Assembly (NCBI GenBank): GCA_041862515.1
Contig: JBGVTJ010000175.1
Coordinates: 1 to 52,656 of the forward strand
DNA: 52,656 bases
DNA from: Thermodesulfobacteriota bacterium
Lineage (GTDB): Bacteria > Desulfobacterota > BSN033 > WVXP01 > G020346125
Direction: 5' to 3'
Shown: piece by piece, positions 25,881 through 46,192 of the stretch
How the letters are laid out: each line of letters starts with the position of its first letter
Numbering within the stretch: the stretch's first letter is position 1
Program-made: the position numbers and the translations under genes
Notes under the pieces: generated by a model
What the model was told of the DNA's origin: nothing
The model's input: the letters and a program-made list of their open reading frames with translations, nothing else
The model's database searches: none

Positions 25881-26052
25881 TATGGGAAACAATGAAAGGC
25901 GTAGTCGGATTTCTCCACGTTAGGAGAAGTCAACAAGGGGGCTTTCAACCGTTTTCGCATTTGAGCCGATATAGGCACCCGAGCAAGCCATCATAGCCGC
26001 ATACCAACTGTTTCTCATCCAAAAGAATCATAACCGAGCTATGAATCGGAAT

Positions 26053-26091
26053 AAAAAAAAGCACTGGATGACCCCCATCATCCAGTGCTTT
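26053..26091 (-). terminator. intrinsic terminator after the 26139 PilZ gene
   Basis: AAAGCACTGGATGA/TCATCCAGTGCTTT stem with T8 on the minus strand. Confidence 0.8.
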
Positions 26092-26138
26092 ATAAAGAGG
26101 AGGTCAGGGTTCGGTTGCCAGGGCTTTTCGCAAATCCC

Positions 26139-26564
26139 TTAACTCGTGGGAAATGGATTCTTAAGATGGAATGCTCGAGCCAGCTGGCCCAAAAGGACCT
26201 TAAGATCCGTAAAGACGCTGTCCCTCATTCCTATCAACCTTAAACCATACTGATATCTTCCCCGAAAAGCATGGTGCTCAATAATCCTCCAGACAATAAC
26301 GGCATTTGCGCCGATAATCTTGAGCTGAAAACCTTGGTTGAAGACTAAATTGACCTTCAAAGAGGCCCCAACCTTAATCAGGTCGTGGAGACAGATCAAC
26401 ATACCGCCCTGGCTAATATTGGCGGCGATACCCACATGGATGGCGCTCTCGGTGGTGATACAGTCGATGGGCAACTCACATTCAAACCTGGGGTATTTTC
26501 GGCGCTCTGGGAAACCCATTCTCGGGTGAGGTGCTTCCGACCAGGCAAAATTGCCCCTTTCCAT
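26139..26564 (-). CDS. PilZ domain protein (1 of 8)
   Basis: RRKYPR and NISQGG motifs, VIVW...YQYGL. Confidence 0.85.
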   Translation of the reverse strand: MERGNFAWSEAPHPRMGFPERRKYPRFECELPIDCITTESAIHVGIAANISQGGMLICLHDLIKVGASLKVNLVFNQGFQLKIIGANAVIVWRIIEHHAFRGRYQYGLRLIGMRDSVFTDLKVLLGQLARAFHLKNPFPTS

Positions 26565-26658
26565 AATGGTTCCCCTTAGTGTTAATTGAATTTGATTGAT
26601 GTTGATACGATTCGTGCCTCGATTTATCACATTTTACCTGAAGATGTTTGGATTTTAC

Positions 26659-26674
26659 TGCATTTTTCATGCCA
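26659..26674 (-). promoter_or_regulatory. putative sigma54 promoter
   Basis: TGGCATGAAAAATGCA. Confidence 0.65.
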
Positions 26675-27090
26675 ATCTGGACAATTGGCAAAATTACCAA
26701 TGATCCCCGTAAGTTGCATCATTTCTCAATATTTTCCAAGAGCAACATTTTTTGTCATATTTATGAATTTTTTGCATAATTACCCCGATTTGACGCCGAT
26801 TTACGGGAATCCATGCGATTTTACCGCGGGTCATTAATGAAGAATATGGGGGAAAAGGGGTTTTAGCGGTGAGAAGTTGATGGTTTTATCTCAGTCAGGG
26901 AGATAGTTGAGGCATTGGCGGGGCTCAATGGCGCCATGGAGTTTGGCCGATTTCGATGGGCCCGACAAACTCACTTTCAATAGGTCGATGTCTATCGGCT
27001 CGATGCGGTGAATCCCTTGGGCCTTACCCCTTTCTCGTCCCGAGCCGGCTTTCCATGGCTCGGGTCCTCCACAGAGGTAAATCCTCCCAA

Positions 27091-27627
27091 TTAGGATGGG
27101 GGAAATTGACCGAGCATTTGGCCGCCCAGTCTCCTCAGTTTATGGACATCCTCTTCGAGGATTTCGGTAAATTGAAGCCCATACGTATAACGGGATCCTC
27201 CAGCCACCGCTCCAAAGTCCCTCCAGACAACCCTACAGGTGGCCTTGATCCCCATGACCTCTGAATCCAAGATGAAGGGAACGAAAACAATCATTTTGGT
27301 TCCAATATCCATCTTCTCGTTCAAGAGGACCATCAATCCCCCTTCGCTGGCGTTGGCCACGCTTCCCACATCGGCCTTCCCATTCTCCGTGAGGGTACAA
27401 TCAATGGGAAAGTCGACGGGAAACCTGGGATGTTTTCGCCTCTCCAGTATGAACCTTTCTCCCCTGAGAAACCTGTCCAGTTCTGATTTCAGGACCTTCC
27501 AGCCCTTGCCGACCTTTTTCGCTCGGATCTTTCCCTCATAGACATACTTTAGGTAGGTTGGCCTGGAGATTCTCAGGTATTGGCAGGCTTCGCGGGTTGT
27601 AAGTACCGTATGGGATTCTGATTCCAT
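27091..27627 (-). CDS. excisionase/BldC-like HTH fused to PilZ (PilZ 2 of 8)
   Basis: LTTREACQYLRISRPT...GKGWKV HTH_17, then RRKHPR/NASEGG; start moved to 27627 because ATG 27684 lies inside the sigma54 motif. Confidence 0.85.
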   Translation of the reverse strand: MESESHTVLTTREACQYLRISRPTYLKYVYEGKIRAKKVGKGWKVLKSELDRFLRGERFILERRKHPRFPVDFPIDCTLTENGKADVGSVANASEGGLMVLLNEKMDIGTKMIVFVPFILDSEVMGIKATCRVVWRDFGAVAGGSRYTYGLQFTEILEEDVHKLRRLGGQMLGQFPPS

Positions 27628-27672
27628 GATTTTTTCATGCTCTTCTCCCGCCCGCTGCAGTATAGGATTGAC

Positions 27673-27688
27673 AGCATTTTTCATGCCA
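27673..27688 (-). promoter_or_regulatory. putative sigma54 promoter with adjacent IHF-like site (27715-27727)
   Basis: TGGCATGAAAAATGCT; upstream TGTCAAGTGGTTA is one mismatch from WATCAANNNNTTR. Confidence 0.65.
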
Positions 27689-27828
27689 GGCTACAGGCAA
27701 AGGGTAATAATTGATAACCACTTGACATTAAGGGACAGCTTTCCTTATCCCTTCTGATTATAAAGAGGGGATGTTGAAATTTTTTCCTATTTTCGGGGGA
27801 AAAAGTATGAAATTATTTCAGATCCTCA

Positions 27829-27847
27829 AAGTCCCCCAAGGGGACTT
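27829..27847 (-). terminator. hairpin just after the island dxs stop
   Basis: AAGTCCCC-CAA-GGGGACTT; short T-tail. Confidence 0.45.
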
Positions 27848-27854
27848 CGGGTTG

Positions 27855-29831
27855 CTACTGAAGCAACTCCTCCATTGAGAGGGTAATCCTGTTCTCCCTC
27901 GATCGCATCACCCTTGATCCGGGTTCTTGCAGATCGACCTCACCCATGAAAAAGCCTCTAACTCTTGTCAGGATTCCCCTGCAATCGAGGCCGCATTTTT
28001 CCCTGAGAACTCTTTGAGAACCATGCTCCAAGAATTGATCCGGTATTCCGAGTCGAAGCACCTCCACATCGGAAAGGGCGCTCTCGTGGAGGAGCTCAAT
28101 CACAGCACTTCCAAACCCTCCTGCCAAAACATGCTCCTCGATGGTAACGACCTTACCGATCTTTTGGGCCAGACCGCACAAGAGCGGACTATCCAGAGGC
28201 TTGATGAAACGGGGATTGACCACCGTAACTTGGATGCCCTCTTCGCGAAGCTGTCTTGCAGCCTCACAGGCCCGATAGACCATCGAACCCACCGGAAGCA
28301 TGAGGAGATCATTCCCCTCAGCTAGAACCTCCCCCTTTCCCATCTCCAATACCATCAATGTTGGGTCCATAGCTACCCCTTCTCCCGCTCCTCTGGGATA
28401 ACGAATAGCAACGGGCTGGGAAAAGAGGGTTGCCGTATTGAGCATGTGTTGAAACTCGTTTTCATCCTTAGGAGCCATGAGAACGAGATTGGGGATGTGG
28501 CGTAAATAGGCAATATCGAAAAGGCCGTGATGGGTGGGGCCGTCTTCTCCGACGATCCCGCTTCGATCCAATGCAAAGACTACCGGGAGCTTCGGTAGAC
28601 AAACATCGTGGACAACCTGGTCATAAGCCCTTTGCAAAAAAGTTGAATAGATAGCGACAACCGGCTTGAACCCCTCCGAGGCCAATCCTGCTGCAAAGGT
28701 GACGGCGTGCTGCTCTGCGATTCCCACATCGTATATGCGATCCGGGAATTCTTCCCCATAGACATTGAGGCCAGTGCCATTTTGCATGGCCGCGGTAACG
28801 GCGATAATCTTTGCATCGGTTCGCGAAAGCTTCACCATGGTCTCTCCGAAGACGCTGCTGTAGCTTATACGAGTGGTTTCCTCGCTAATTCGCCTCCCCG
28901 TCTCAATGGCAAAGGGGGCCACTCCGTGGAAGGAGGATGGGTCGAGTTCTGCGGGTTCATAGCCCTTTCCCTTCTTGGTGATCACATGGATCAATATGGG
29001 ACGATGCCACTCCTTTACGTTTCTAAAGGTCTCAATAAGGTGGTCAATATGATGCCCGTCGATAGGACCCACATATTTAAATCCGAGTTCTTCGAATAAT
29101 ATCCCGGGTGTCAAGAATCCCTTAAATGACTCCTCCGCCTGTTTAATAATTCTGACCATGGAGTTACCGATCCCGGGGATGGTCTGAAGGAGGGACTTCA
29201 GTTGCCGTCGAAATCGGTTAACCAATTGGCCAGTCATGATTCGATTCAAATAAGCGGAGAGCGCTCCCACATTGGTAGAGATGGACATCTCATTGTCGTT
29301 GAGTACCACGATGAGGTCCTTTCCCAGATGGCCTGCCTGATTTAACCCTTCGAAGGCCAAACCTCCCGTCATGGAGCCGTCTCCGATGATGGCAATAACC
29401 GTCTTTTTATCCTCTTTGAGGAATTTGGCTACGGCCATTCCCAAAGCGGACGAAATGGAGGTGCTGCTGTGGCCAGTATTGAATGCGTCGTGGGGGCTCT
29501 CCTCCCTTTTAGGGAAACCGCTCAACCCGTTATACTGCCTCAACGAATGAAAGGACCTGCTCCTCCCCGTTAAGAGCTTGTGGGTATAGCACTGGTGTCC
29601 TACATCCCAAATTATCTTATCCCGAGGGGAATCAAAGACGTAGTGAAGGGCAATAGTCAGTTCCACAACCCCCAAGTTCGAGCTCAGATGCCCTCCAGTG
29701 ATGGAAACAGTATGAATGATTTCCTGCCTTATCTCCTCGGCTAGGTGGTATAGTTCTCCTCTGCTCAATTCGCGCAAGTCTTGTGGACAATGGATCTTCT
29801 TCAGAAGGTTCCGTTTTCGGTCCCGGCCCAT
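27855..29831 (-). CDS. dxs: 1-deoxy-D-xylulose-5-phosphate synthase, second copy inside the PilZ island
   Basis: [44 protein letters not shown] all intact. Confidence 0.95.
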
Positions 29832-29850
29832 CTCCCGTGCCCTCCTCTAC

Positions 29851-30222
29851 TCAGACCATCTGGTCCTCTGTGTACTTTCTCAGTCGCTTCAATTTCGATA
29901 TGTCATATTCATCGATCTCGAGAAATTTGAGGCCGTATTGATAACCTGGGAAATCTGATAGTAATCCTACGTCTTTCCAGATGATCTGACATCGTGCTTT
30001 GATCTCCGTCAGTTGATAGCCAAGGTTGAATAACATGGAAAGAACCAGCTTGGTCCCGGTGTTCATGCTCTCCTCGAGACAGACCATCAGCCCCCCTTCA
30101 CTGGCATTGACGGCCTTCCCTACAAAGGTTCTGACTCCATCCGCGAGACGGTAGTCGACGGGAAAATCAACGGGGAACCTGGGATGTCTCCTTCGCTCAT
30201 AGAGTGGTAAATGGCCTTCCAT
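29851..30222 (-). CDS. PilZ domain protein (3 of 8)
   Basis: RRRHPR, NASEGG, IIW...YQYGLKF; SD GGAGG. Confidence 0.88.
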   Translation of the reverse strand: MEGHLPLYERRRHPRFPVDFPVDYRLADGVRTFVGKAVNASEGGLMVCLEESMNTGTKLVLSMLFNLGYQLTEIKARCQIIWKDVGLLSDFPGYQYGLKFLEIDEYDISKLKRLRKYTEDQMV

Positions 30223-30362
30223 ACACCCTCCAACACAAGATGGATTTCGGTCCCACTTCCTTCCGCCGAGAAACCAGGTAACAACCAGGATTATTTGTTG
30301 TATAGGGATAAGGATCCGGTGATGGCTCTGGATGATCTCCTTGCCCCAATGGTAATATTTTT

Positions 30363-30378
30363 TGCATTTTCTGTGCCA
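30363..30378 (-). promoter_or_regulatory. putative sigma54 promoter of the pilZ-dxs unit
   Basis: TGGCACAGAAAATGCA. Confidence 0.65.
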
Positions 30379-30637
30379 AACCTCGACAAAGGTAGCCCGT
30401 CGACCTCGATTCCCCGGCTAAAAAGACCTCCTGGGATGAGATGGGCTTCTCTTGTGTTTTCGTCGATTAATGAGGGCAGGAAGCACAATGGTATGTGGGA
30501 AATATCCTTAACAAGTGGAGGCAAAGATAAGCCCCCTCGGGGATAAACAAAAGGTCCGGGGATTAACCGTTTTGGGGTTGGAATAAGCCCAGGAGGAAAC
30601 AAGGGAAAAGGTAGAATTCAATTCTCCGGGGATGGAT

Positions 30638-31018
30638 TTAGGACTGGATCGCTACATCTGCTCGGAGCCGTTCCAATTTATGCAGGTCTTCATCGGCAAT
30701 CTGTAAAAACTTCAACCCATACTTGTATCGACCCCAGCCCTCTTCCAATCGGGCAGCCTTCCATATCACTTGGGATAATGCTTTAACTCCAGTAAGCTCA
30801 AACCCCAGGGAGAAAAGGAGGGCAACATAGAGCTTTGTCCCGATTTTCATTCGTTCTTGCAGATAGACCATCAACCCCCCCTCGCTGGCATCGCCCACCA
30901 GGCCAGCCTTGAGCCGCATCTTCTCTAGCCGGGCATAATCCACGAGCAGGTCTACCTTAAACCGTTGAGACCTTCTTCTCTCCACGCCCGAAACACCGAT
31001 CCTTTCTTCCATCTTCAC
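30638..31018 (-). CDS. PilZ domain protein (4 of 8)
   Basis: RRRSQR, DASEGG, VIW...YKYGLKF. Confidence 0.88.
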   Translation of the reverse strand: MKMEERIGVSGVERRRSQRFKVDLLVDYARLEKMRLKAGLVGDASEGGLMVYLQERMKIGTKLYVALLFSLGFELTGVKALSQVIWKAARLEEGWGRYKYGLKFLQIADEDLHKLERLRADVAIQS

Positions 31019-31039
31019 CCTCCTTCGGTAATCTTGAAT

Positions 31040-31492
31040 TCACCGATACCGGATGGCAAGGCCCCTTAAGAGAACTTTTTCCTCCTTTGCTTCGGGACTG
31101 GAAATGTCCAATGGTTGATGTCTGGCTTTCCTCCTGATGGGTTCGGCAATAGCCTGCGGGATCGCGATTTCAACTACTTCCCTTTCAAGGCCAATGACGG
31201 CATCTGCTCCAATTCCTCGGGCTGCCTCCTTCATCCGATTCAGCATCTCCTCATCTTCCAATTCGGGAGAGAGAGTTGCCGCTAGTTCTCCGATAATAAT
31301 ATATGGCCTCTCCACGTCACTGGTAAAAACCTCCGCCTTCGCTGTTTCGGGAAATGCTTCCTTTGTATATCTAACAAAGGAGACGCCTTCATATGGGCTT
31401 TCAGCGGCACAACCAACAAAGATGATGACCAGGCATACGATCAGAGAGGACTTGATTTCCTTACAGAACGGAAAAGAAAACAAAAAGGACAC
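31040..31492 (-). CDS. putative lipoprotein with YbjQ-like domain
   Basis: Lipobox-like IFVGC; RPYIIIGEL, EAARGIGADAVI, GLAIRY; start uncertain. Confidence 0.65.
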   Translation of the reverse strand: MSFLFSFPFCKEIKSSLIVCLVIIFVGCAAESPYEGVSFVRYTKEAFPETAKAEVFTSDVERPYIIIGELAATLSPELEDEEMLNRMKEAARGIGADAVIGLEREVVEIAIPQAIAEPIRRKARHQPLDISSPEAKEEKVLLRGLAIRYR

Positions 31493-31564
31493 TGTGATTT
31501 TAACCTACCAAATCTCTTTAGAAAGGGGTTTCTGCTTAAGTTTCCTCTTGCAAAATGGACAAGG

Positions 31565-31690
31565 TCATCCCTCTTGAATCAATATTTCCCTCATGATATT
31601 CAATAAATCCTCATCCTCAAGCACCTGCAGGACTATATTCGGATGGGGCTTTCGATCATATACCCTATAAGGGAAGCTGCTCTTACTCAT
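31565..31690 (-). CDS. small hypothetical protein (41 aa, below the ORF cutoff)
   Basis: SD GAAGGAG then MSKSSFPYRVYDRKPHPNIVLQVLEDEDLLNIMREILIQEG*. Confidence 0.5.
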   Translation of the reverse strand: MSKSSFPYRVYDRKPHPNIVLQVLEDEDLLNIMREILIQEG

Positions 31691-31749
31691 GAACTCCTTC
31701 TTCTCATTTATAAATTGAGCCTCCACTCTACAAGAAATGGATCAATTAG

Positions 31750-32097
31750 TCAAGGATGTTTCTCCTTTGTCATTCGGGATTGAACGATTTTCCTGAGCAT
31801 CTTCTGCGCATCTGCGGAAATCTTTTTGTATTGAATCCCCATTCCCGAATGCGTTCCCTTCAGGATCCAAACGACCTCTCCTACGATCACCAAGGGTTCG
31901 GGGTGATTCGGGAAGGAAAATTCCAGGGGAACTTCTGTCCTGGGGGGCAACAACTCATCCGTTTCGATAAAACATCCTCCCTCGCTGATATTGTCCGTAA
32001 ACCGATGGAGATAGGAATCCATCTTTTGGTAACTCACCTCAATCTGCACCTTCACTCTAGGATGCTTTCTCCGCTCTTTTCCCTTATGGGTCTCCAT
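31750..32097 (-). CDS. PilZ domain protein, myxococcal TIGR02266-like (5 of 8)
   Basis: RRKHPR, NISEGGCFIET, GEVVW, GMGIQY. Confidence 0.88.
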   Translation of the reverse strand: METHKGKERRKHPRVKVQIEVSYQKMDSYLHRFTDNISEGGCFIETDELLPPRTEVPLEFSFPNHPEPLVIVGEVVWILKGTHSGMGIQYKKISADAQKMLRKIVQSRMTKEKHP

Positions 32098-32138
32098 GAG
32101 AACCTCTCCTTATCCAAGGCATTATTGATGTACTCCAC

Positions 32139-32579
32139 TTATCTGACCTGCCGGATGAAACGGTTCCACTTCTCCCTCCTCTTGGGAGTCAACTCCTCGA
32201 GAAAAACCCCGATCTTTAAGCGGTACGTCTCATTGGTCGCTTTTAACTCGCTCCAAATTACCCTGCCCAAGCCGATTATCTTCCCCTCGGGCGATGGGAG
32301 ATCGATTTCCAGCTCCAGCTGCTGTTCTCTCATTACCAGAAACGGCAATACCTTAACCCTTTTTGCACCGCTCGATTCTGAGAAGGTCATAACACCTTCC
32401 TGTACAACGGCATCAGTCTCGATGCACAACCCGTCATAAGAGACATTCCATGTTTCTCCTCCTATGACCATGGAACTCTGTTTCTTGCTCCAAAGGTCTA
32501 CAATCTTAAAGAGGACCCTCAAGGGAACACGGAGCCGGGTAAATAAACGCCGTTCAACGACGCTGATCTTTTTTGCCAT
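32139..32579 (-). CDS. PilZ domain protein (6 of 8)
   Basis: RRLFTR, NVSYDG, GRVIW; paralogue of 38653..39054. Confidence 0.8.
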   Translation of the reverse strand: MAKKISVVERRLFTRLRVPLRVLFKIVDLWSKKQSSMVIGGETWNVSYDGLCIETDAVVQEGVMTFSESSGAKRVKVLPFLVMREQQLELEIDLPSPEGKIIGLGRVIWSELKATNETYRLKIGVFLEELTPKRREKWNRFIRQVR

Positions 32580-32650
32580 CGTTCCTCAATCCCCCCGGAG
32601 AGTCACCTGAATGAGGGTCTCATCGTTTACCATGATCCCCCTACTCTTCC

Positions 32651-32718
32651 AAAAAAAAACCAGCTCTACAGATAATCTCTGGCCCCTGTTCCCCCGAGGA
32701 TAACCAAAATAGAGCTGG
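32651..32718 (-). terminator. terminator-like stem with a long loop between two PilZ genes
   Basis: CCAGCTCTA/TAGAGCTGG stem, about 40-nt loop, T9 tail on the minus strand. Confidence 0.55.
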
Positions 32719-32736
32719 CCGTTACCTTCTTTCAGC

Positions 32737-33132
32737 CTAAGCGGAAAGGCTATCAAGCAACCCTTTTAATTTGGAAAAATCATCCTTCCCTATGTTCATG
32801 AATTTCAATCCGTACTTAAACTCGCCCCAATCCTCGGGTCCCCTGATATCCGCCCAAACGATTTCCGCCTCGGCCTTGATGGGCGTTAGACGAAAACCAT
32901 GGGAAAAGAATACCTCAATCTTCAGCTTTGTACCAATGGGAAACTTCTCCTGCAAATAGACGAGAAGTCCTCCCTCGCTGGCATCGTGGGCAATCCCTCC
33001 CTGCTTCTTACGTACCCTCACCTCGGAATATTTCATGGGGAGATCCACGTTGAACCTGGGAAACCTCCTCTTCTCGATTGAAACAATCCCTTCTCTTCCG
33101 CCCAGATCTTTTCGATTCTTCTCTTTACTCAT
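32737..33132 (-). CDS. PilZ domain protein (7 of 8)
   Basis: KRRFPR, DASEGG, IVW...FKYGLKF. Confidence 0.88.
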   Translation of the reverse strand: MSKEKNRKDLGGREGIVSIEKRRFPRFNVDLPMKYSEVRVRKKQGGIAHDASEGGLLVYLQEKFPIGTKLKIEVFFSHGFRLTPIKAEAEIVWADIRGPEDWGEFKYGLKFMNIGKDDFSKLKGLLDSLSA

Positions 33133-33141
33133 AGAGATTCC

Positions 33142-33300
33142 TCACGGACATTCCTTCAATTTCTGTTCCACCCACTGGATCATCTCATCGAGACACATCT
33201 CCTCGAACATGCCTTCTCGAATATCTTCGAACATTTTTTCGTTCCAGTCAACCCAATCTTTTTCCTGCTGAGCCTTATTCCAGATGGTTATCTTCCCCAT
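33142..33300 (-). CDS. small acidic hypothetical protein (52 aa)
   Basis: SD GGAGGGGGAAGG before ATG 33300; MGKITIWNKAQQEKDWVDWNEKMFEDIREGMFEEMCLDEMIQWVEQKLKECP. Confidence 0.55.
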   Translation of the reverse strand: MGKITIWNKAQQEKDWVDWNEKMFEDIREGMFEEMCLDEMIQWVEQKLKECP

Positions 33301-33416
33301 CTTCCTTCCCCCTCCCGGTATATTGATGCCCATCCCCACTCTCGAATGGGTGAGACTGAAAATTGAGTCGTTGCGATGATCGCTTTTGAAGGGCGAAAGC
33401 AGTCGTCTTGAAGGAT

Positions 33417-33608
33417 TCACTGATCTCCCCTTAAGAAACGCCGCAGCTCCGATTTGAGCACCTTCCAGCCCTTTCCTGCTTTTGTAGCGTTAATCCGTCC
33501 CTCCCGAATATATTTGAAGTATGTTGGTTTCGTAATCCGAAGGTACGCACAGGATTCCTGGGTTGTCAATACTCGATCTTGTCTGTTGTCATAACTGTCT
33601 TGAGCCAT
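33417..33608 (-). CDS. stand-alone excisionase/BldC-like HTH protein
   Basis: VLTTQESCAYLRITKPTY...GKGWKVLKSELRRFLRG, close paralogue of the 27627 HTH. Confidence 0.82.
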   Translation of the reverse strand: MAQDSYDNRQDRVLTTQESCAYLRITKPTYFKYIREGRINATKAGKGWKVLKSELRRFLRGDQ

Positions 33609-33649
33609 ATGCACATTCACCACGACAAGGAAGTGTATCCGTATTACCG

Positions 33650-33665
33650 TGCATTTTTTATGCCA
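33650..33665 (-). promoter_or_regulatory. putative sigma54 promoter with IHF-like site near 33699-33711
   Basis: TGGCATAAAAAATGCA; upstream TATCATGGAGTTA. Confidence 0.65.
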
Positions 33666-33918
33666 AGGGAACCGAGCGATGTTCTGAATCGTCCTCATTA
33701 ACTCCATGATATGATCAGCGATACTTCATGCCACATCCCCAAAAAGATGCCGTCTGCTCATTGAGTTGACTTTTTTTTCATAGTTTAGGCAAACGTCTCT
33801 TATTGAGCGGAGGGATAATGGAAATCTCTATCAAGGCGGGAAATAAGGGCAGGACCGATACCGAGGGGGGTTGATTTTCCTTAAGGGTTAATCCCTTTCA
33901 GCAAACCCCATATGGTAT

Positions 33919-34461
33919 CTATGGGCGTAGCCATGAGGGGTCAGCATCTGCAATCCTGGCCTCATCCAATAAGACGTCATTCAGCATGTGTTTAGCCTCT
34001 TCTGTCTGAGCCTTATATTTTTCGTCTTCCTCCTGGAGGCGTTTGATCTTCCTCCGGTACCTTCTCCTCTTCCCATCGTTTCGGGCCTTGTCTAAGACCT
34101 TCTCTGCTTCTTCGATCTCCCTGGTAATCCTTTGGTGCTGGGAAGTGGCATTATCTAATTGAACCCACCACTTGGAGGCCCTATCCCTCCACCAGGATTC
34201 CCTCCGTCCAAAACGATCCGTGGACTCACGCTGGACCCTTTGCTTCGGCCGTTTCCCCTCCTCGGAAGGTTTTTGCCCTTCCTCCTTGATGGTTTTCTTC
34301 TCCTCAACGCGATCCCAATAGCGCTCGGGTACCTTTGCCGGATCATCAGTAAAATGGATCGTTCCCGAATCGTCCGCCCATTTATATACCTGGGCATAGG
34401 AAAAGGAGGTCGCCAAAATGCAAAAAAGCCCAAGGAGGCCGTGGAGATATCTCATATTCAT
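33919..34461 (-). CDS. DUF4124 domain exported protein with coiled coil
   Basis: Signal peptide, VYKWADDSGTIHFTDDP..VP, coiled-coil C-terminus. Confidence 0.82.
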   Translation of the reverse strand: MNMRYLHGLLGLFCILATSFSYAQVYKWADDSGTIHFTDDPAKVPERYWDRVEEKKTIKEEGQKPSEEGKRPKQRVQRESTDRFGRRESWWRDRASKWWVQLDNATSQHQRITREIEEAEKVLDKARNDGKRRRYRRKIKRLQEEDEKYKAQTEEAKHMLNDVLLDEARIADADPSWLRP

Positions 34462-34967
34462 ACCATTCCCCTGACTCAAGGGGCATTTGATTCATCCACC
34501 CTAAATGATGCCCCGATTGAATTTCGGACAATAATCGGGATACAATCCTTTTACCAATACATCATGGTTTCATCTCCCATGTTGATGTATTGGATTGGAT
34601 CAGCCAAACCCCTCCTTTGGCTGATCCTTTTTTTTAAAAATCTACCCCATCAATGCCGACTCGTCAAGGACGCTTCATCCTATCGCGGAATTTTCGAAAA
34701 ATCCCTTTCATGGTTTGAGGAGCTATGGAAATTGTTTCAGGGACCGAAGTTGCTCTTTTTCATGGAGGAGGAGAAGAGGAATAAAAGAATTTTCGAGGAA
34801 AACATGGCGAGGCCATGAATCAAAGGGAGAGAGGGATCGATGAAATCAATAGTTATCGAGGTTATTGGGGCGGGGGGTTTTTTTACCTTTCTAACTCGAT
34901 CTCATCGGTCCCTCATCCCTCATTCCTATTCATCCAGCATCTGATGCATACCCGTCAGGGCATGAGA

Positions 34968-35315
34968 TCATGCCCATCGTTCCATATACCGTTTGCTCTT
35001 TCGGCTTGCTCTCTCGCGCAGAATTATTCCCAGGGGCAAGCGGAAATTCACATTCCTGGAGGCCCCTTTCGCCTTCCTCCGATGGGTATTTAGATAGGGG
35101 TCCTCCCTTTCCCTCACTCTCCCCTCGATGTATTCCCTCTGGGTTATCTCCTGGATCAGTTTTATGCCTTTCTGGTATCTCTTCTTCTTAACCCTTGGAA
35201 AATGGGAGGCGGAGAACAATACTGAAAAGATATCCCTACCCTGAAGATACCTTACCATTTCGTAACTCTTCCCAGCACCCACGTGACCGCTTTCCAAGAT
35301 GAGCTTAAAGAACAT
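34968..35315 (-). CDS. basic hypothetical protein
   Basis: MFFKLILESGHVGAGKSYEMVRY...; ATG 35315 with SD and a sigma54 motif directly upstream. Confidence 0.65.
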   Translation of the reverse strand: MFFKLILESGHVGAGKSYEMVRYLQGRDIFSVLFSASHFPRVKKKRYQKGIKLIQEITQREYIEGRVREREDPYLNTHRRKAKGASRNVNFRLPLGIILRERASRKSKRYMERWA

Positions 35316-35348
35316 CGCACACCCCTGCAATGACTGAATGCTTTTCGA

Positions 35349-35364
35349 AGCAAGAACTATACCA
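35349..35364 (-). promoter_or_regulatory. putative sigma54 promoter
   Basis: TGGTATAGTTCTTGCT. Confidence 0.6.
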
Positions 35365-35567
35365 AGACCCGTTTAGCCAGGAGGATATGAGAACTCTGGA
35401 TAAATAAAGATGGGGAGAATTCGGCCTGAATTTATTGTCCAACAACGCATAAACTCAGGCCGCATCGATCGGGGCATTAGATGAACAATCCATCTCAAAC
35501 GTTATGAAAACGGCATCAATGCATACCTTTTTTCACCGATCTATGAAAACTTTTCATAAATTCCCAA

Positions 35568-37379
35568 TCATGAAAGGGAACAATGCTCGCAATTCCCATC
35601 CTGACAATAGTCGGCTCCGAGGAGGTAGAGGTAATCGAAGGCCAAGGGGTCATCGGATAAATGATCTATGATCTCATCGAAGAGGTGGGGACGGCCCCCT
35701 AATAAGGGCAATTCCAATCGTTCACCCCAATCACTCCCTCGCCATTCCTGCCTCAGACAGCGCGCAATGGGTTCAAACTGTGCAGGAGATGCCCTCCCAG
35801 TGCCCAATTCCCTCATAGCATATGCGATGCATCGAGCTGAGATGAGAGGATCGAATCCATGGATATTCATGATATCTTGGTGGAGGACCATGATATCGGA
35901 CTCACTGGAGGCCGATATCATTGAGGAGGCTATTGTGCCCACGTGGAGCGATAGTTCCTTTAAGGTTCTGGCAAATCGGGTCTTTCCACCATTTGTATGG
36001 AGCCATACCCCCCCCTTCAATACGCACTTGCGTAATTTGGATTCGATTTCATCCAAACTAACCCTTCGAAGCTCCCCTGCATGAAACAGGCCCTGGTTTC
36101 TCAACAGTGAATTGATGGATCCACCCTCCTCATCCCAGACTATTTCCCAGGGTCGAAAAGGCCATCTATCAAAAAGGATCAGGGAAAGGAACTTTAGAAG
36201 GACATCTTCTTCGCTGACCAAGGATTTGGCATTGAACCCAAGATGGCTGAAATTCCTCAAGTCATGGGGAATTTTTTCCTCGGTATATCCCTTAATGAGA
36301 GCCCTCGCGATACTCGATGGGCTTTTCTGGCTGATTTTAGGGCATGAGAAATTTCTCAGGGGGGACTGGCCATCGAATTGAGCTAGAGGAACGTGTGGGG
36401 ATGGAGGAAAGCTCGATCCAACCTTCTCGTATACCGCCATCTTGGGAACTCCCCAGCCCGGAGGACCTTCCACAAAGGTTCCTGTGTCTCGAATGGAACT
36501 CCCGTGCTCCTGTGCATAACGCGAGAGGATGTCGGCCAAATACCGCCTTGCCGGTTCACTATCAACATCCTCATATTTCCTCTCCAGTATGGCCCACTTT
36601 TCGGGAAAATCTGCCGTTAATACCTCCTCGACATCGGCCTGGGTAAACACATCTTTCGGAATCCTAGAGAACGCTTCTTCCAGTAATGAACAGATGTCCT
36701 CTGAACTGAGGTCCCCCGGCTCCAAGATCACCTTATTGGTGGCCTTGGTTGGATTGTTTCTCCGCGGAAGTACCACCTTTTGGGGGGGAACTTTGTCAAT
36801 CACGGCCGTAATCATTGCTCCATCCTCTCCCTTAAAAGCAATGGAAATACGCCTGACCCCGGTATTTCCCTTCGCCACCACCCTGAAGGGAGAGCATTGA
36901 CCCGAATGAAGGGAACTGAAGGCGATGGGAGATTCCTCATAGATGACGAATTGGTCGCGGAAATCAAAAAATTGAGCAACAACCTTCACACCCCTAAGGG
37001 GATTGGATGAGATGTTCTTCACCCTTCCGACTACCTCTATTCTCCCTCCCTGAGAGCGTGAAGTCAGGGATTCAAGTTGGAGAAAGGGCGCTTTATCTCC
37101 CTCGAATTCCAGCTCCAGCAAAGGCGTTTCGTCCTCCGTTAGGAATTGTGCCCTCCCCCCCAATGATTCAAACTCCTTTACCAAGGCATCGGCCTTAGCC
37201 CGGGAAAGGCCTTTTTTGAGCAAAACGGGTGTGTTGCTGATCAGGTGGTTCGCCTTTTCAGGGGAGATATGGAAACGCTTCGATATATCCCTAAGGAAGT
37301 TTTTCTTGCCCTGCGCCGAGTTGTTGGCAACCCCGAAAAATATGACTTTGTACGTACTTTGATCCCCTCCTGGAACCAC
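35568..37379 (-). CDS. multidomain hypothetical protein (L7/L12-CTD-like N-terminus, FxLYD-like domain, C-terminal HhH/Cys-cluster-like domain)
   Basis: 603-aa ORF; PVLLKKGLSRAKADALVKEFESLGG; VVGRVKN...VKVVAQFFD...LHSGQCSPF; ends GADYCQDGNCEHCSL. Confidence 0.65.
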   Translation of the reverse strand: MVPGGDQSTYKVIFFGVANNSAQGKKNFLRDISKRFHISPEKANHLISNTPVLLKKGLSRAKADALVKEFESLGGRAQFLTEDETPLLELEFEGDKAPFLQLESLTSRSQGGRIEVVGRVKNISSNPLRGVKVVAQFFDFRDQFVIYEESPIAFSSLHSGQCSPFRVVAKGNTGVRRISIAFKGEDGAMITAVIDKVPPQKVVLPRRNNPTKATNKVILEPGDLSSEDICSLLEEAFSRIPKDVFTQADVEEVLTADFPEKWAILERKYEDVDSEPARRYLADILSRYAQEHGSSIRDTGTFVEGPPGWGVPKMAVYEKVGSSFPPSPHVPLAQFDGQSPLRNFSCPKISQKSPSSIARALIKGYTEEKIPHDLRNFSHLGFNAKSLVSEEDVLLKFLSLILFDRWPFRPWEIVWDEEGGSINSLLRNQGLFHAGELRRVSLDEIESKLRKCVLKGGVWLHTNGGKTRFARTLKELSLHVGTIASSMISASSESDIMVLHQDIMNIHGFDPLISARCIAYAMRELGTGRASPAQFEPIARCLRQEWRGSDWGERLELPLLGGRPHLFDEIIDHLSDDPLAFDYLYLLGADYCQDGNCEHCSLS

Positions 37380-37388
37380 AACGTCCCC

Positions 37389-37913
37389 CTATTTCACCCA
37401 TTCCACAGGAACTCCTGCTCTTTCCGCCTCTTCGGGCAAGGTCTTTTCCAGGATTTCCTTTGTTCTATCGATATCCTCACTTCGACCATTTAACTCATCC
37501 TGGAGCGATTCGAGCTCTTTTTGGTACTGCCTCCTTTTGGCACGGGACCGGGTGGCGTTATATTGAGCAATGAGGTCGTTGTATTCCAACCTAACCCGCT
37601 CGTACTCCTTTTGTGCTCGGTTCAATTGCTCCTTAATCTCGTTTGTCCTCTTAACCCAATACTCCTCTCCTCGGCCATACCGATCTCGTGGTTTCTCCAT
37701 TACCCCTTTGGTCTCCCCGGCAGTTCCCGATGATTCCTCCCTCTCTCCGGGTAGCTCCCTGTGGTCTATCTGTTCCCTGTATTTCTTCGGCACTGAATCT
37801 GGGCTGTCGGTGAAGTGGACAACTCCCCGTTCATCTACCCACTGCCAAACCTCGTTCGGTCTTCCCGTTGAAGCAAAAAAAAGAATTGCCATGATCAGAA
37901 AAGCCGCCTTCAT
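37389..37913 (-). CDS. DUF4124 domain exported protein with coiled coil
   Basis: Signal peptide, VWQWVDERGVVHFTDSP..VP; paralogue of the 33919 gene. Confidence 0.82.
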   Translation of the reverse strand: MKAAFLIMAILFFASTGRPNEVWQWVDERGVVHFTDSPDSVPKKYREQIDHRELPGEREESSGTAGETKGVMEKPRDRYGRGEEYWVKRTNEIKEQLNRAQKEYERVRLEYNDLIAQYNATRSRAKRRQYQKELESLQDELNGRSEDIDRTKEILEKTLPEEAERAGVPVEWVK

Positions 37914-37937
37914 CTCCTCCTCCCTTGATGAACTAGA

Positions 37938-38405
37938 TTATTCAACGATGACCGCAGTTCCCTTGGCATATACCAAAACCATCAAAACCTCCTCCTTAAC
38001 TCCAAGGGATTCATAACGGATATCGACTCCGACAAGTCCATTTGCCCCCAGAGCTAGGGCATCATCGGTGAGAGTCCGGATCGCCCATTCCCTTCCCTTC
38101 ATGAATTTGTCCACCAGGGAAAGGGCCATTCCTCCATTGAATTTACTGAGATCCAATTCTCCGGATATTTTGAACCCGACTACCTGTTCCGTCGTCACCA
38201 ACCCCAGGGATTTAGCCACCTTTCTGGTACCAACCTCTGGTGTACTCACTATCACGAATTCCCTTCTCTTCTTTTGATCCGCGAAAAATTGTACGACATC
38301 GGGATTTTCCCGTTTTGTGCAAGAAGGACAGGAATCCGGCAACGCCTCTCCACCGCTAAAAGTAAAGGAATTATCACAGAACTTACACTTAACCATCCAC
38401 TCCAT
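37938..38405 (-). CDS. zinc ribbon + YbjQ/UPF0145 domain protein
   Basis: CKFC...CPSC; LGLV, ALALGANGLVGVDIRYE, VYAKGTAV. Confidence 0.8.
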   Translation of the reverse strand: MEWMVKCKFCDNSFTFSGGEALPDSCPSCTKRENPDVVQFFADQKKRREFVIVSTPEVGTRKVAKSLGLVTTEQVVGFKISGELDLSKFNGGMALSLVDKFMKGREWAIRTLTDDALALGANGLVGVDIRYESLGVKEEVLMVLVYAKGTAVIVE

Positions 38406-38573
38406 TTTCCCCTCATCCCATACTGGAATCCTCTCGTTGTCCCTCGCTATCGCTATTCGTTACTATCCATCCCCCTCAGGGTAAAGGAGGGCTACCCTTT
38501 CGTCCAAAACTCATTCGGAGCGGAACCCACTCCTCCAAACATCCCCTTATGGGCTTACGGTAGGGTTAACAAA

Positions 38574-38589
38574 AGCAATTAGCATGCCA
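38574..38589 (-). promoter_or_regulatory. putative sigma54 promoter
   Basis: TGGCATGCTAATTGCT, near consensus. Confidence 0.7.
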
Positions 38590-38652
38590 ATAATCTTTTT
38601 CCAGGATGTAACGAAATGTACGGAGGGAATGGAAACAAAAAAAACTGATGAC

Positions 38653-39054
38653 CTATTTCCGGAGGGTTGTAAGGAATCGTCTCCATATCTCCTTGGAATT
38701 TTCATCCATTTCCGTCAAATAAACGCCAGCACGAAAACGGTAAGGGGAACCGGATGAACTGAGATCATACCACATCACCTTCCCCAGGGCCGTTATCCGC
38801 TCCGATTCGGGAGGCACATCGATCTCCATTCTGAGCCTCTCCTCCTCCATCGCCTCGGAGAAAACATGCGAACCATCTACCAAGACCACATTGGTCTCAA
38901 GGCAAATGCCCTCGAGGGAAACGTTGGAGATCATCCCTCCCAACTTCCTCGAGGCATCCCGTCTGCCCAGAACGTGATACAGGTTGAACCGGACAGGCAG
39001 AGGGGATTCCAAGCGCAAAAATTTCCTCCTGTCAACTCCTCTCCAACCCTTCAT
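38653..39054 (-). CDS. PilZ domain protein (8 of 8)
   Basis: RRKFLR, NVSLEG, GKVMW; paralogue of the 32139 gene. Confidence 0.82.
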   Translation of the reverse strand: MKGWRGVDRRKFLRLESPLPVRFNLYHVLGRRDASRKLGGMISNVSLEGICLETNVVLVDGSHVFSEAMEEERLRMEIDVPPESERITALGKVMWYDLSSSGSPYRFRAGVYLTEMDENSKEIWRRFLTTLRK

Positions 39055-43452: not shown

Positions 43453-44199
43453 TTATGCCTTCGGGATCTTCTCCAGGTGGATGAAGAATTCCCTATTACC
43501 CTTTGGCCCCAGCAGCGGAGATTCCATCGTTTCACCAACCCTTAAACCAATTGACTCCGAAAAACGGGAGATCCGATCGAGAACCTGCTGATGTTTCAAC
43601 CTTTCCCTCACCACACCACCTTTCCCAACCTCCCCCCTTCCCACCTCAAACTGTGGCTTCAACAAGGCCACTATCTCCCCTCCATCCCTCATCATGGGAA
43701 GTATATTGTCGAGGAATTTCACTACAGAGATGAAGGAAGTATCGATAACCACCAAATCCACCTTCTCCCCTACTTCTGGGGGCCTCAAATAGCGGATGTT
43801 CTTCCTTTCGAGGCTCACCACTCGTGGATCGTTCCTCAGTTTCCAGGCCAGCTGCCCATAACCCACGTCAATTGCATAGACCCTCTTGGCTCCCCTTTGG
43901 AGCAAACAATCGGTAAATCCCCCCGTTGAAGCACCCACATCCATGGCTACCTTCCCCTTCGGGTCTACCTGAAATCTACGGAGGGCCTTTTCCAGCTTAA
44001 GTCCTCCCCGGCTCACATAAGGATGATCACTCCCTTTTACCCGAATTTGCGAATCGGGATTCACGAGGCTTCCCGCCTTGTCAACTACTCGATCATCCAC
44101 CATAACCATACCAGCCAGAATAATGGTTTTGGCCCTTTCCCGGGATATAGCGAGTCCCTTATCCACCAGGAGTTTATCCAGCCTTTCGCGCCTCTTCAT
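43453..44199 (-). CDS. tlyA: TlyA family rRNA methyltransferase/hemolysin
   Basis: S4 domain, [30 protein letters not shown]. Confidence 0.95.
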
Positions 44200-46127
44200 T
44201 GCAGCAAAATTCTTTTTCCAAATTCCATAGTGCCGTGCTTTCCCCTGTGTACCCCCAGGACCATTTCCCTTGCCACCTCCGCAATTCCCTCAATATTGAG
44301 TCCATACTTTCCCCTGAGGGTTTCCTGTGGGCCGTGCTCCACAAATCGGTCAGGGATCCCAATACGTCTTACCTTCACCTCGGAAAGCTCCCTTTCTTGG
44401 AAAAGCTCCAGGACCGCGCTGCCAAAGCCACCGTCCAATACATTCTCTTCAACGGTGAGGACCTTCCCCAGTCTTTCAGCATGAGTACAAATTAACTCCC
44501 CATCCAGGGGTTTCACGAAACGACAGTTGATGACCGAAGCCCTCATCCCATGCTCTAATAACCTATGGGCCGCCTCTAAGCTCGGGTAGACAGTGGATCC
44601 GATAGCCAAGATAAGCAAATCATCTCCCTCCAGCAGAACTTCTCCTTTTCCCACCTCCAGTGCTTTCGGCTCTCGGTCCACCTTCACACCATATCCAGTC
44701 CCCCTTGGGTAGCGAAAGGCAATAGGTTTCTTCCACTCGATGGCTGTCTTGATCATATGTTGAAACTCATTTTCATCCTTCGGGGCCATTACAACCATAT
44801 TGGGCAGGTGTCTGAGGTAGGAAAAATCGAAGAGCCCGTGGTGGGTTGGCCCATCACTCCCCACCATTCCCCCCCTATCCAAGGCAAAAACCACGGGCAA
44901 GTTCTGGAGACAAACGTCCTGTTGAACCTGATCATATGCCCTCTGCAAAAAGGTGGAATAGATGGCCAACACCGGTTTGAAACCCTCAATGGCCAACCCG
45001 GCAGCAAAGGTAACGGCGTGTTGTTCGGCGATCCCAATGTCGAAGAACCTTTCAACAAATCCCTTTGAATATCCCCTCAACCCCGTTCCATCTTCCATCG
45101 CTGCAGTGATGGCAATGATCTTATCGTCTTGTTCAGCCAATTGAACTAAGGTCTTCCCAAAGACCTCGCTATAGGTTGGAGGCGCATCTCCCCTCTTATG
45201 CAGCTCTCCTGTCTCGATATGAAAGGGGCCGACGCCATGGAATCGGGATGGATCGGACTCTGCAGGAGAATACCCTTTTCCCTTCTTAGTCAAAACATGG
45301 ACCAATATCGGTCCCTCCATTTTCGCTACATTGGAGAAGGTCTCAACGAGGTGATCCAATCGATGGCCTTCGATGGGTCCGATATATTCAAACCCCAATT
45401 CTTCGAAGAGCAACCCGGGAGTGAGAAACCCCTTAAAGGAATCCTCCGCCTGTTTGACGATTTTATACATGGATTTTCCAATACCCGGAAGGGTTTGCAG
45501 GAAGGCCTTCATCTCAGTACGGAATCGGTTCACGAATCGCCCCGTCAGAACTCGACTCAGGTAGGACGCCAAGGCCCCAACATTAGGGGAGATGGACATC
45601 TCATTGTCGTTAAGTACCACGATGAAGTCCTTTCCCAGATGGCCTGCCTGATTTAACCCTTCGAAGGCCAAACCTCCCGTCATGGAACCGTCTCCGATTA
45701 TGGCGATAACCCTCCTCTTATCCCCTTTGAGGGATCTGGCTATGGCCATTCCCAAAGCGGACGAAATCGAGGTACTGCTGTGGCCGGTATCGAAGCAGTC
45801 ATGAGGGCTTTCTTCCCTCTTGGGAAAACCACTTAAGCCCCCAAACTGCCGAAGGGTCTTGAACCTCTGCTTCCTGCCCGTAAGGAGCTTATGTGTATAG
45901 GTCTGATGTCCCACATCCCAGACCAACTTATCAGTGGGTGAATTGAAGACATAATGGAGGGCGATGGTCAACTCCACCACCCCGAGGTTGGAAGCCAGGT
46001 GTCCTCCCGTCAATGATACCGTTTTGATGATCTCCTCTCGTATTTCAGCGGCCAAGAGGGGCAATTGATTCTTTTCCAATGCCTTTAGGTCAGACGGCGA
46101 GCCTATACGGTCCAACAATTTTTCCAT
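44196..46127 (-). CDS. dxs: 1-deoxy-D-xylulose-5-phosphate synthase (canonical locus)
   Basis: All DXS motifs; xseB-ispA-dxs-tlyA synteny. Confidence 0.96.
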
Positions 46128-46192
46128 CCCTTCCAACCTCAAGGGGATTTTGTCTTCCGTCTCTTGATCAACATTGCATCTTTTGAGTGATA

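Follow-up and report, generated by a model that had tools for sequence, protein, structure and literature searches.

The genome of a Thermodesulfobacteriota bacterium from an uncultured sediment lineage (assembly GCA_041862515.1) carries, on contig JBGVTJ010000175.1, a gene whose product joins a small helix-turn-helix (HTH) domain to a PilZ domain, the sensor of cyclic di-GMP (c-di-GMP). The 52,656 nucleotides (nt) of this contig that were analysed are called the window. In the labels used below, G000 is the window's genome (3.9 Mb), C175 is the window's contig, other G numbers are related genomes and L numbers are loci. The fusion gene comprises the following features (aa, amino acids).

27091..27627 (-): HTH_17-PilZ fusion, 178 aa; span includes the stop codon
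27460..27606 (-): HTH_17 domain, an excisionase/BldC-type winged helix, aa 8-56 (Pfam, TIGR01764, AlphaFold2 [AF2])
27424..27459 (-): interdomain linker, aa 57-68, holding RRxxxR (R63, R64, R68)
27127..27444 (-): PilZ domain (Pfam, Foldseek)
27337-27354 (-): NASEGG motif of the PilZ domain, aa 92-97

Domain architecture and predicted structure of the fusion

The length of 178 aa was adopted because orthologues start at the equivalent of position 27627. A longer open reading frame (ORF) of 197 aa (27091-27684, minus strand; annotated start 27684) was rejected, as it would cross the sigma54 box described below and orthologues begin at the later start. Within this longer ORF, and in its numbering, PF12728 (HTH_17) matched aa 27-75 (E 6.2e-13; 49.2 bits against a cut-off of 27) and PF07238 (PilZ) matched aa 81-186 (E 3.2e-13; 50.3 bits against 22.5). 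The NCBIfam profile TIGR01764 for excisionase family DNA-binding domains also matched the fusion (E 1.4e-12; 47.8 bits against 28.8). About eight residues, with no intervening helix, separate the HTH from PilZ, and both c-di-GMP motifs are complete (RRKHPR, aa 63-68; NASEGG, aa 92-97). The long coiled-coil dimerization helix and the effector-binding domain that follow the HTH in classical MerR proteins are absent from the fusion.

The AF2 model of the fusion (29 sequences) had a mean predicted local distance difference test (pLDDT) of 71.5 and a predicted template modelling score (pTM) of 0.47. Its HTH has the order beta-alpha-alpha-beta-beta-alpha over residues 8-54, with a pLDDT of 83-94 over residues 11-50, whereas the RxxxR arm in the linker (residues 62-68) falls below 50 in this apo model. 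The PilZ part, with strands from residues 76-156 and a helix at 158-174 (pLDDT 54-80 by block), forms the six-stranded beta-barrel and C-terminal helix of the PilZ fold. Foldseek matched this barrel to c-di-GMP-bound PilZ domains of Alg44, MapZ and YcgR (template modelling score, TMt, 0.65-0.79; Alg44, 0.75-0.79), and further matches were MotI, MrkH, PlzA and MapZ bound to CheR1.

A free HTH_17 paralogue in the same window (HTH33608, described below) gave a model of higher confidence (47 sequences; pLDDT 84). Its top fold matches were the BldC-DNA complexes 6ama and 6amk (TMt 0.72-0.82; root mean square deviation 1.6-1.9 Å), followed by RdfS excisionase, TraN, the MerR-type NmlR, Pukovnik Xis and lambda Xis; the small size of the domain keeps the E-values of these matches modest (6e-3 and weaker). 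Compared with sequences, the fusion profile gave weak matches to Pukovnik Xis gp37 (E 0.016) and BldC (E 0.044). The fold is that of a MerR-type winged helix without a coiled-coil, and the chain ends, or PilZ begins, right after the last helix. The initial annotation had described the product of the gene starting at 27627 as an excisionase/BldC-like HTH joined to PilZ; Pfam, NCBIfam and the fold matches agree on this architecture, and PF12728, TIGR01764, the BldC top fold match and the weak Xis and BldC sequence matches together bear out the excisionase/BldC-like label.

Conservation, distribution and origin

Among 41 related genomes, every one of the eight from the genus has a full-length fusion, and none of the remaining 33 does; those 33 match the two halves of the fusion separately. 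In a phylum sample of 401 genomes from 254 genera (E<=1e-20), full-length matches were confined to the three sampled members of the genus (0/398 others). A word-indexed protein search returned 109 proteins, of which the top 39 clusters (79-100% identity, metagenomic) all carried both Pfam domains. Named genome records contributed 59 loci: seven fused, two with a separate downstream PilZ gene (L041 and L084), 49 with a solo HTH (no PilZ gene within 700 nt downstream) and one, L090, that was not parsed. All seven fused loci, from metagenome-assembled genomes (MAGs) labelled Syntrophobacterales, Thermodesulfobacteriota or “Pseudomonadota”, carry the sigma54 box.

More distant fusions also occur. 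An exhaustive search of 1.84 billion representatives gave 941 matches at E<=1e-3, with only the fusion's own cluster below 1e-30. A Pfam scan of 15 of the 150 listed matches identified two proteins, P0203 (173 aa) and P0236 (186 aa), with HTH_17 followed by PilZ and 31-36% identity to the window fusion; both domains are present in five of six members of the P0203 family. Judged from these sequences, P0203 and P0236 appear to be independent fusions in two other rare lineages. In the ESM Atlas, the fusion query gave only leads below 0.8 (PilZ clusters from Thermodesulfobacteriota).

The ligand motifs are strictly conserved. Residues R63, R64, R68, N92, S94 and G97 are identical in 29 of 29 aligned fusions, two of which share only 31-36% identity with the window protein, and RRxxxR lies 5-9 residues after the HTH in all aligned fusions, P0203 and P0236 included. 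Over 28 orthologue pairs, Nei-Gojobori ratios of nonsynonymous to synonymous substitution (dN/dS) were 0.06 for the HTH and 0.32 for PilZ; both halves are under purifying selection. The fusion is thus not a decaying singleton, an outcome that would have spoken against the initial annotation: it occurs in 8/8 genus genomes and 39 clusters, with complete motifs and these dN/dS values.

The genus contains three close HTH paralogues that are 60-69% identical, namely, the fusion, HTH33608 and a copy on contig C19. In a tree of the HTH domain (53 columns), HTH33608 and the C19 copy group together (98/97), the solo HTHs from outside the genus form a second group (90/79) and the fusion HTHs form a third, so that the alignment yields what appears to be an unordered three-way split. 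The fusion HTH is 75-84% identical to solo HTHs of other genera versus 63-69% identical to HTH33608, and an unfused copy of the fusion-type HTH was not found in the window's genome. The PilZ domain of the fusion is 49% identical to PilZ29851, 46% to PilZ30638 and 38% to PilZ32737, the PilZ gene that follows HTH33608. The earlier proposal that the HTH33608-PilZ32737 pair was the source of the fusion after duplication is therefore unsupported as stated, as both halves have closer relatives elsewhere and the tree leaves the order of the three groups undecided. Duplication followed by fusion is possible; fusion of an adjacent HTH-PilZ pair, as seen in L041 and L084, would be an equally possible route.

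Separate but adjacent HTH and PilZ genes recur. They are present in two other MAGs (L041 and L084), and a third HTH_17/PilZ pair of the window's genome lies at L001 (G000:C355; 898-1107 and 1104-1466, plus strand), where the HTH_17 is a divergent 69-aa protein and the overlap of its stop codon with the PilZ start codon (ATGA) implies translational coupling. Together with the HTH33608-orf52-PilZ32737 order, this recurring adjacency (L041, L084 and C355) supports a functional link between HTH_17 and PilZ proteins, as far as gene order can indicate one, rather than physical contact.

Some of the solo or paired loci have features of their own. L083 and L084, on two contigs of the same MAG, are identical in a 61-aa HTH gene and in the first 12 codons of the ORF after it, whereupon one copy continues into PilZ and the other into an unrelated 98-aa ORF, which has the look of a recombination junction immediately behind the HTH. 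At L073, L081 and L085, a conserved ORF of about 62-69 aa (MKKL.P.ISS.KSD...; approximately 3150-3490, plus strand) comes after the solo HTH; it bears no evident relation to orf52.

Predicted sigma54 promoters and the PilZ cluster

The fusion and HTH33608 are each preceded by a sigma54-type -24/-12 box, in which GG and GC are ten bases apart (TGGCATGAAAAATGCT and TGGCATAAAAAATGCA). The upstream features are as follows.

27673-27688 (-): sigma54 -24/-12 box of the fusion, TGGCATGAAAAATGCT; core TGGCATGRAAAATGCT kept in 8/8 orthologues
33650-33665 (-): sigma54 box of HTH33608, TGGCATAAAAAATGCA; invariant in 6/6 orthologous loci
27706-27717 (-): integration host factor (IHF)-like block TTATCAATTATT (inexact match), with the palindromes on its upstream side and the sigma54 box on the other
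27808-27820, 27775-27786 (-): two conserved palindromes upstream of the fusion, TGAAATAATTTCA and GAAAAAATTTCA; kept in 8 orthologues
G000, C175 27775-27820 (fusion), C238 646, C352 1495, C363 963: loci with palindrome TGAAAWAATTTCA and a sigma54-like box

In an alignment of the eight genus promoters, the fusion box is invariant but for one purine, and the blocks TTATCAATTATT, TCTGAAATAATTTCATACTT and GGAAAAAATTTCAAC are also conserved; outside the conserved blocks, the intergenic region and the stretch just before the start codon diverge. Allowing at most one mismatch, TGGCATN6TGCW occurs 18 times in the window against 5.0 expected, a count reached in none of 100 shuffles. A narrow pattern (TGGCAY-RR-AAAATGC-H) has eight occurrences in the 3.9-Mb genome, of which four are in the window, before HTH33608, PilZ29851, the fusion and PilZ26139, and one precedes the third close HTH paralogue on contig C19. 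A looser scan of the genome gave 77 matches, with a small HTH_17 gene on contig C77 among those downstream; other downstream genes have N termini that we take, by eye, to resemble type IV pilins and PspA. The genome encodes the corresponding machinery, with one Sigma54_DBD (rpoN) match and 19 Sigma54_activat matches, 17 of them strong. The near-identical sigma54 motifs that had been noticed at both HTH genes are therefore real features, conserved against diverging flanks and enriched in the window, and the reading of both as predicted sigma54 promoters is well supported by the comparison of genomes. That such predicted promoters precede many of the lineage's PilZ and small HTH genes was unexpected.

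IHF-like sites had been noted at both genes as well. Sites are present at both, but they match the IHF pattern only approximately: TTATCAATTATT is exact in six of eight orthologues, with one change in the other two, and TATCATGGAGTTA (33699-33711), upstream of HTH33608, fits WATCAWN4TTR in three of six orthologues.

The palindromes TGAAATAATTTCA and GAAAAAATTTCA are 98 and 132 nt upstream of the sigma54 box of the fusion. The palindrome GAAAWAATTTCA occurs at 10 genomic loci, four of which have a sigma54-like box in the correct orientation 100-150 nt downstream; since about 0.3 such loci were estimated to arise by chance, the palindrome is a candidate enhancer-binding-protein site, and the four loci suggest a putative regulon of one enhancer-binding protein. 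A comparison of all A-rich sigma54 boxes gave no shared upstream activator motif besides the box itself, and only the palindrome of the fusion recurs at other loci. One of the four contigs, C363, carries a 66-aa HTH_17 gene (L003; 536-736, minus strand) with an upstream sigma54-like box, TGGTACAGATATTGC, and the palindrome. The gene downstream of it is presumably, as judged by eye, a Wzz/GumC-type chain-length determinant, so that an exopolysaccharide locus is possible. No RNA run matched window positions 26000-34000, and 20 DNA runs from 12 studies contain at least half of the sampled words.

The fusion lies among eight PilZ genes within 13 kb (26139-39054, minus strand), seven of which, the fusion included, fall between 26.1 and 33.7 kb. 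The remaining genes of interest are listed below.

33417..33608 (-): HTH33608, free HTH_17 paralogue, 63 aa, ending at TGA
33142..33300 (-): orf52, small acidic protein of 52 aa, 9 nt upstream of PilZ32737; GGAGG-type ribosome site
32737..33132 (-): PilZ32737, single-domain PilZ protein of 131 aa (PilZ E 1.6e-11); RRFPR and DASEGG complete
29851..30222 (-): PilZ29851, closest paralogue of the fusion PilZ (49%); own sigma54-like box at 30363-30378
26139..26564 (-): PilZ26139 (ORF 26139-26630), the gene immediately after the fusion; strong terminator at 26058-26091, sigma54 box at 26659-26674
30638-31018, 31750-32097, 32139-32579 (-): remaining PilZ genes of the cluster (Pfam)
38653-39054 (-): eighth PilZ gene (Pfam)

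RxxxR and [DN]xSxxG are retained in all eight PilZ genes of the window, at least three of which follow sigma54-like boxes, and the genome has 22 PilZ matches in total. HTH33608 was recognized by HTH_17 only among Pfam profiles (E 1e-10; 42.1 bits against a cut-off of 27) and by TIGR01764 (40.9 bits against 28.8). It is 63% identical to the HTH of the fusion (36/57; E 4e-26), with GKGWKVLKSEL.RFLRG in common. The Pfam scan and alignment thus confirm the earlier description of an HTH-only paralogue followed by a 52-aa ORF and a PilZ gene. The placement of that PilZ gene in the same group as the PilZ of the fusion is loosely right for PilZ32737, at 38% identity, but PilZ29851 and PilZ30638 are closer relatives. 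A search for longer proteins of the HTH33608 type, as a sign of fused forms, gave only two that are HTH only (117 and 131 aa), which is weak evidence.

No match to orf52 was found in Pfam, NCBIfam or the ESM Atlas. It is stop-free in six genus loci, at 73-88% identity, and in G001 it lacks a start and has a premature stop. A 92-aa version starting from a GTG that overlaps the HTH stop codon was rejected, as its N-terminal 40 residues are not kept in frame in the genus. Where both genes fall on the retrieved stretch, the order HTH33608-orf52-PilZ32737 is kept in the window and in L025, L026, L027, L029 and L033, and in L028 up to the contig end. The wider genus order, seen on every stretch long enough to show it whole, is DUF4124, HTH33608, orf52, three PilZ genes, a lipoprotein gene, two PilZ genes, a second dxs, the fusion and a PilZ gene. 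A complex prediction for HTH33608 with PilZ32737 scored 0.02 against a mark of 0.32; as it was run without controls, it counts neither for nor against binding.

The cluster contains further repeated genes. The dxs gene is present twice in the window (27855-29831 and 44196-46142, minus strand; 67% identical), one copy in the canonical xseA-ispA-dxs setting and the other amid the PilZ genes, immediately before the fusion; across the genus, this embedded copy retains 84-94% identity. A set of DUF4124, YbjQ-like lipoprotein and PilZ genes also occurs twice (31040-34479 and 37389-39054), with 35% identity between PilZ32139 and PilZ38653, which hints at an old segmental duplication. A 603-aa ORF (35568-37379, minus strand) had no Pfam match at E<=1e-5 and is conserved in the genus, being 75% identical to the copy in G001.

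A candidate c-di-GMP-gated regulator and its alternatives

The product of 27091-27627 (minus strand) is probably a c-di-GMP-gated one-component DNA-binding regulator. We infer, on good grounds, that its DNA binding responds to c-di-GMP because the fusion is conserved and under purifying selection, the ligand motifs are complete in 29 of 29 fusions and the HTH has a BldC fold match. Its architecture, motifs, conservation and promoter, and the recurrence of the HTH_17-PilZ link in genomes, are direct observations, whereas c-di-GMP binding, DNA binding, the direction of the ligand effect and the target genes are predictions from them. The genome can make c-di-GMP, since it has GGDEF genes (seven strong and two weak matches). 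One weak GGDEF match, about 1.1 kb from the C19 HTH paralogue, belongs to a class III cyclase-like protein. HTH_17 is also the N-terminal output module in fusions with other sensor domains of the genome, REC and PBP_like. The HTH_17-REC gene (L002, G000:C49; 1166-1744, minus strand) is beside a PAS histidine kinase gene, and the HTH_17-PBP_like gene (window positions 2882-3796, minus strand) is beside an ABC transporter gene with a TOBE domain.

The RxxxR arm of PilZ proteins is flexible and closes over c-di-GMP. In the fusion, the N-terminal BldC/excisionase-type winged helix would provide a MerR-like DNA-binding fold without a dimerization helix of its own, and the short, disordered linker that joins it to a canonical PilZ barrel would be the RRxxxR arm itself. 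Because this arm constitutes the whole linker, ligand binding should pull the HTH to the barrel: c-di-GMP would clamp the linker onto the barrel and draw the HTH against it. The HTH domains might thereby be fixed, or be paired through intercalated c-di-GMP dimers, and either effect would alter DNA binding because the BldC-type HTH has no dimerization element of its own. The gene itself would be a separate transcription unit with a sigma54 promoter and two palindromes resembling enhancer-binding-protein sites, set within a sigma54-rich cluster of eight PilZ genes.

Several points weigh against such a regulator. The AF2 model of the fusion has no defined interdomain geometry, in keeping with its low pTM, and the confidence of its PilZ part is moderate. 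In the samples searched, the fused form is confined to one genus (0/33 relatives and 0/398 phylum genomes), and its function is therefore not widely needed. Forty-nine of the 51 closest solo HTHs outside the genus have no PilZ gene within 700 nt downstream, so that the HTH family as a rule works without PilZ. The fold relatives Xis and RdfS act in recombination and not as transcription factors, and binding of c-di-GMP and of DNA by the putative regulator is a prediction from sequence.

Alternatively, though this is unlikely, PilZ could serve as a protein adaptor, with the HTH constitutively tethered to DNA and the c-di-GMP-loaded PilZ domain recruiting or sequestering a partner (for example, RNA polymerase, a sigma54 activator or another regulator). 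An adaptor role is known for single-domain PilZ proteins: TssZ is reported to bind the regulator HinK and prevent it from binding DNA. The fold matches include MapZ in complex with CheR1, and the locus is rich in free PilZ proteins, which fits such a role. The very short linker containing RxxxR nevertheless argues for direct coupling to the HTH, and apart from other PilZ genes and dxs, no candidate partner gene lies beside the fusion in all orthologues.

The absence of a dimerization element in the HTH would also fit an architectural, BldC/Xis-like system in which the fusion and the free HTHs (HTH33608 and C19) co-assemble head-to-tail on repeated DNA sites while PilZ, and possibly free PilZ proteins and orf52, decorate or cross-link the assembly in response to c-di-GMP. 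Titles and abstract openings on BldC, RdfS and Xis relatives describe DNA binding as cooperative multimers or filaments, the three close HTH paralogues all lie behind near-identical sigma54 boxes and the HTH33608-orf52-PilZ32737 order is conserved. We consider this system quite unlikely: contact between free HTH and free PilZ proteins is suggested by gene adjacency alone, no repeated operator arrays were identified, 49 of 51 free HTHs of other genera lack a PilZ neighbour and mixed assembly is not a given for paralogues that are only 60-69% identical. An elaborated form of it is more doubtful still as a description of the locus. In a sigma54-driven modular DNA-coating system, BldC-like HTHs with PilZ (the fusion) and without it (HTH33608 and C19) would co-assemble head-to-tail, free PilZ proteins and orf52 would either join in or compete at the very surface that the fusion fills covalently and c-di-GMP would set the composition and reach of the filament instead of acting as a single-operator switch.

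Two further explanations are very improbable. The fusion could be the recombination directionality factor (excisionase) of a mobile element that acquired PilZ, as HTH_17/TIGR01764 is an excisionase family and Xis and RdfS are among the fold matches, but Pfam scans of the window's main ORFs revealed no integrase, transposase or phage gene, and the housekeeping and PilZ neighbourhood is syntenic genus-wide without a GC anomaly. A chance or decaying fusion or an assembly artefact without function would suit the restriction to one genus in the searched samples, but hardly its presence in eight independent assemblies and 39 clusters with frame and motifs whole, dN/dS well below 1 and a conserved promoter.

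If the fusion is indeed a c-di-GMP-gated regulator, a minimal BldC-type HTH and a PilZ domain with the ligand arm as a hinge would make the simplest imaginable c-di-GMP-to-DNA switch, easy to approach in structural work and usable as a compact synthetic-biology part. The fused, adjacent and separated HTH and PilZ modules of the same genomes also constitute a natural experiment on the action of PilZ in trans on small DNA-binding proteins.

Comparison with known systems

Within known PilZ effectors and c-di-GMP transcription factors, the fusion is best read as a new domain combination, BldC-like HTH plus PilZ, and a candidate regulator. Ligand binding in YcgR-type two-domain PilZ proteins re-orients the two domains. 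YcgR, PP4397, VCA0042 and MotI share with the fusion an RxxxR motif in the linker between the N-terminal domain and the PilZ barrel, but their N-terminal domain is PilZN/YcgR_N and their output is contact with a flagellar motor protein, not DNA.

BldC of Streptomyces, a MerR-like developmental regulator of 68 residues, is the best fold match of the HTH. Like HTH33608, which is of similar size (63 aa), it has neither a coiled-coil nor an effector domain, and it is reported to bind DNA cooperatively and head-to-tail. It differs in sharing only 20-22% identity and in lacking a ligand-binding partner domain. In classical MerR proteins and in BrlR, which is reported to sense c-di-GMP, a MerR-type N-terminal DNA-binding domain is likewise coupled to a ligand sensor. 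Classical MerR proteins, however, have coiled-coil dimerization and a C-terminal effector domain (GyrI-like in BrlR), while the fusion has no coiled-coil and a PilZ sensor.

For the split arrangement, TssZ-HinK of Pseudomonas aeruginosa offers a precedent, in which, as reported, a single-domain PilZ protein modulates DNA binding by a separate regulator in a c-di-GMP-dependent manner. HinK is a LasR-type regulator and its gene is not reported there as a neighbour of that for TssZ; the pairing of HTH33608 with PilZ32737 is hypothetical.

A similarity-network survey of PilZ proteins reports DNA-binding domains among di-domain members and a compact cluster of 97 uncharacterized proteins with a predicted HTH, for which a role in gene expression is proposed (bioRxiv 10.1101/2020.02.11.943704). 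The HTH of that cluster is described as C-terminal, whereas the window fusion has its HTH_17 at the N terminus, next to the RxxxR arm. A literature search gave no paper on a PilZ protein with an N-terminal HTH_17; the figures and supplements of this survey (bioRxiv 10.1101/2020.02.11.943704), which could hold such a cluster, lay outside that search.

Very few PilZ-based c-di-GMP transcription factors are known. MrkH is named as a PilZ transcription factor in the available review text, PlzA is described as controlling gene expression in the accessible part of the survey (bioRxiv 10.1101/2020.02.11.943704) and neither is described in these sources as using a classical HTH. As in MrkH, a C-terminal canonical PilZ domain with RxxxR and D/NxSxxG would sense c-di-GMP in the fusion, with DNA binding as the output, and the MrkH structures 5ejl, 5kec and 5kgo are among the fold matches. 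MrkH combines an N-terminal PilZ-like domain with a C-terminal DNA-contacting helix, however, whereas the N terminus of the fusion is HTH_17. The two proteins align through the PilZ barrel only, at 12-14% identity, and would work alike in principle without belonging to the same class.

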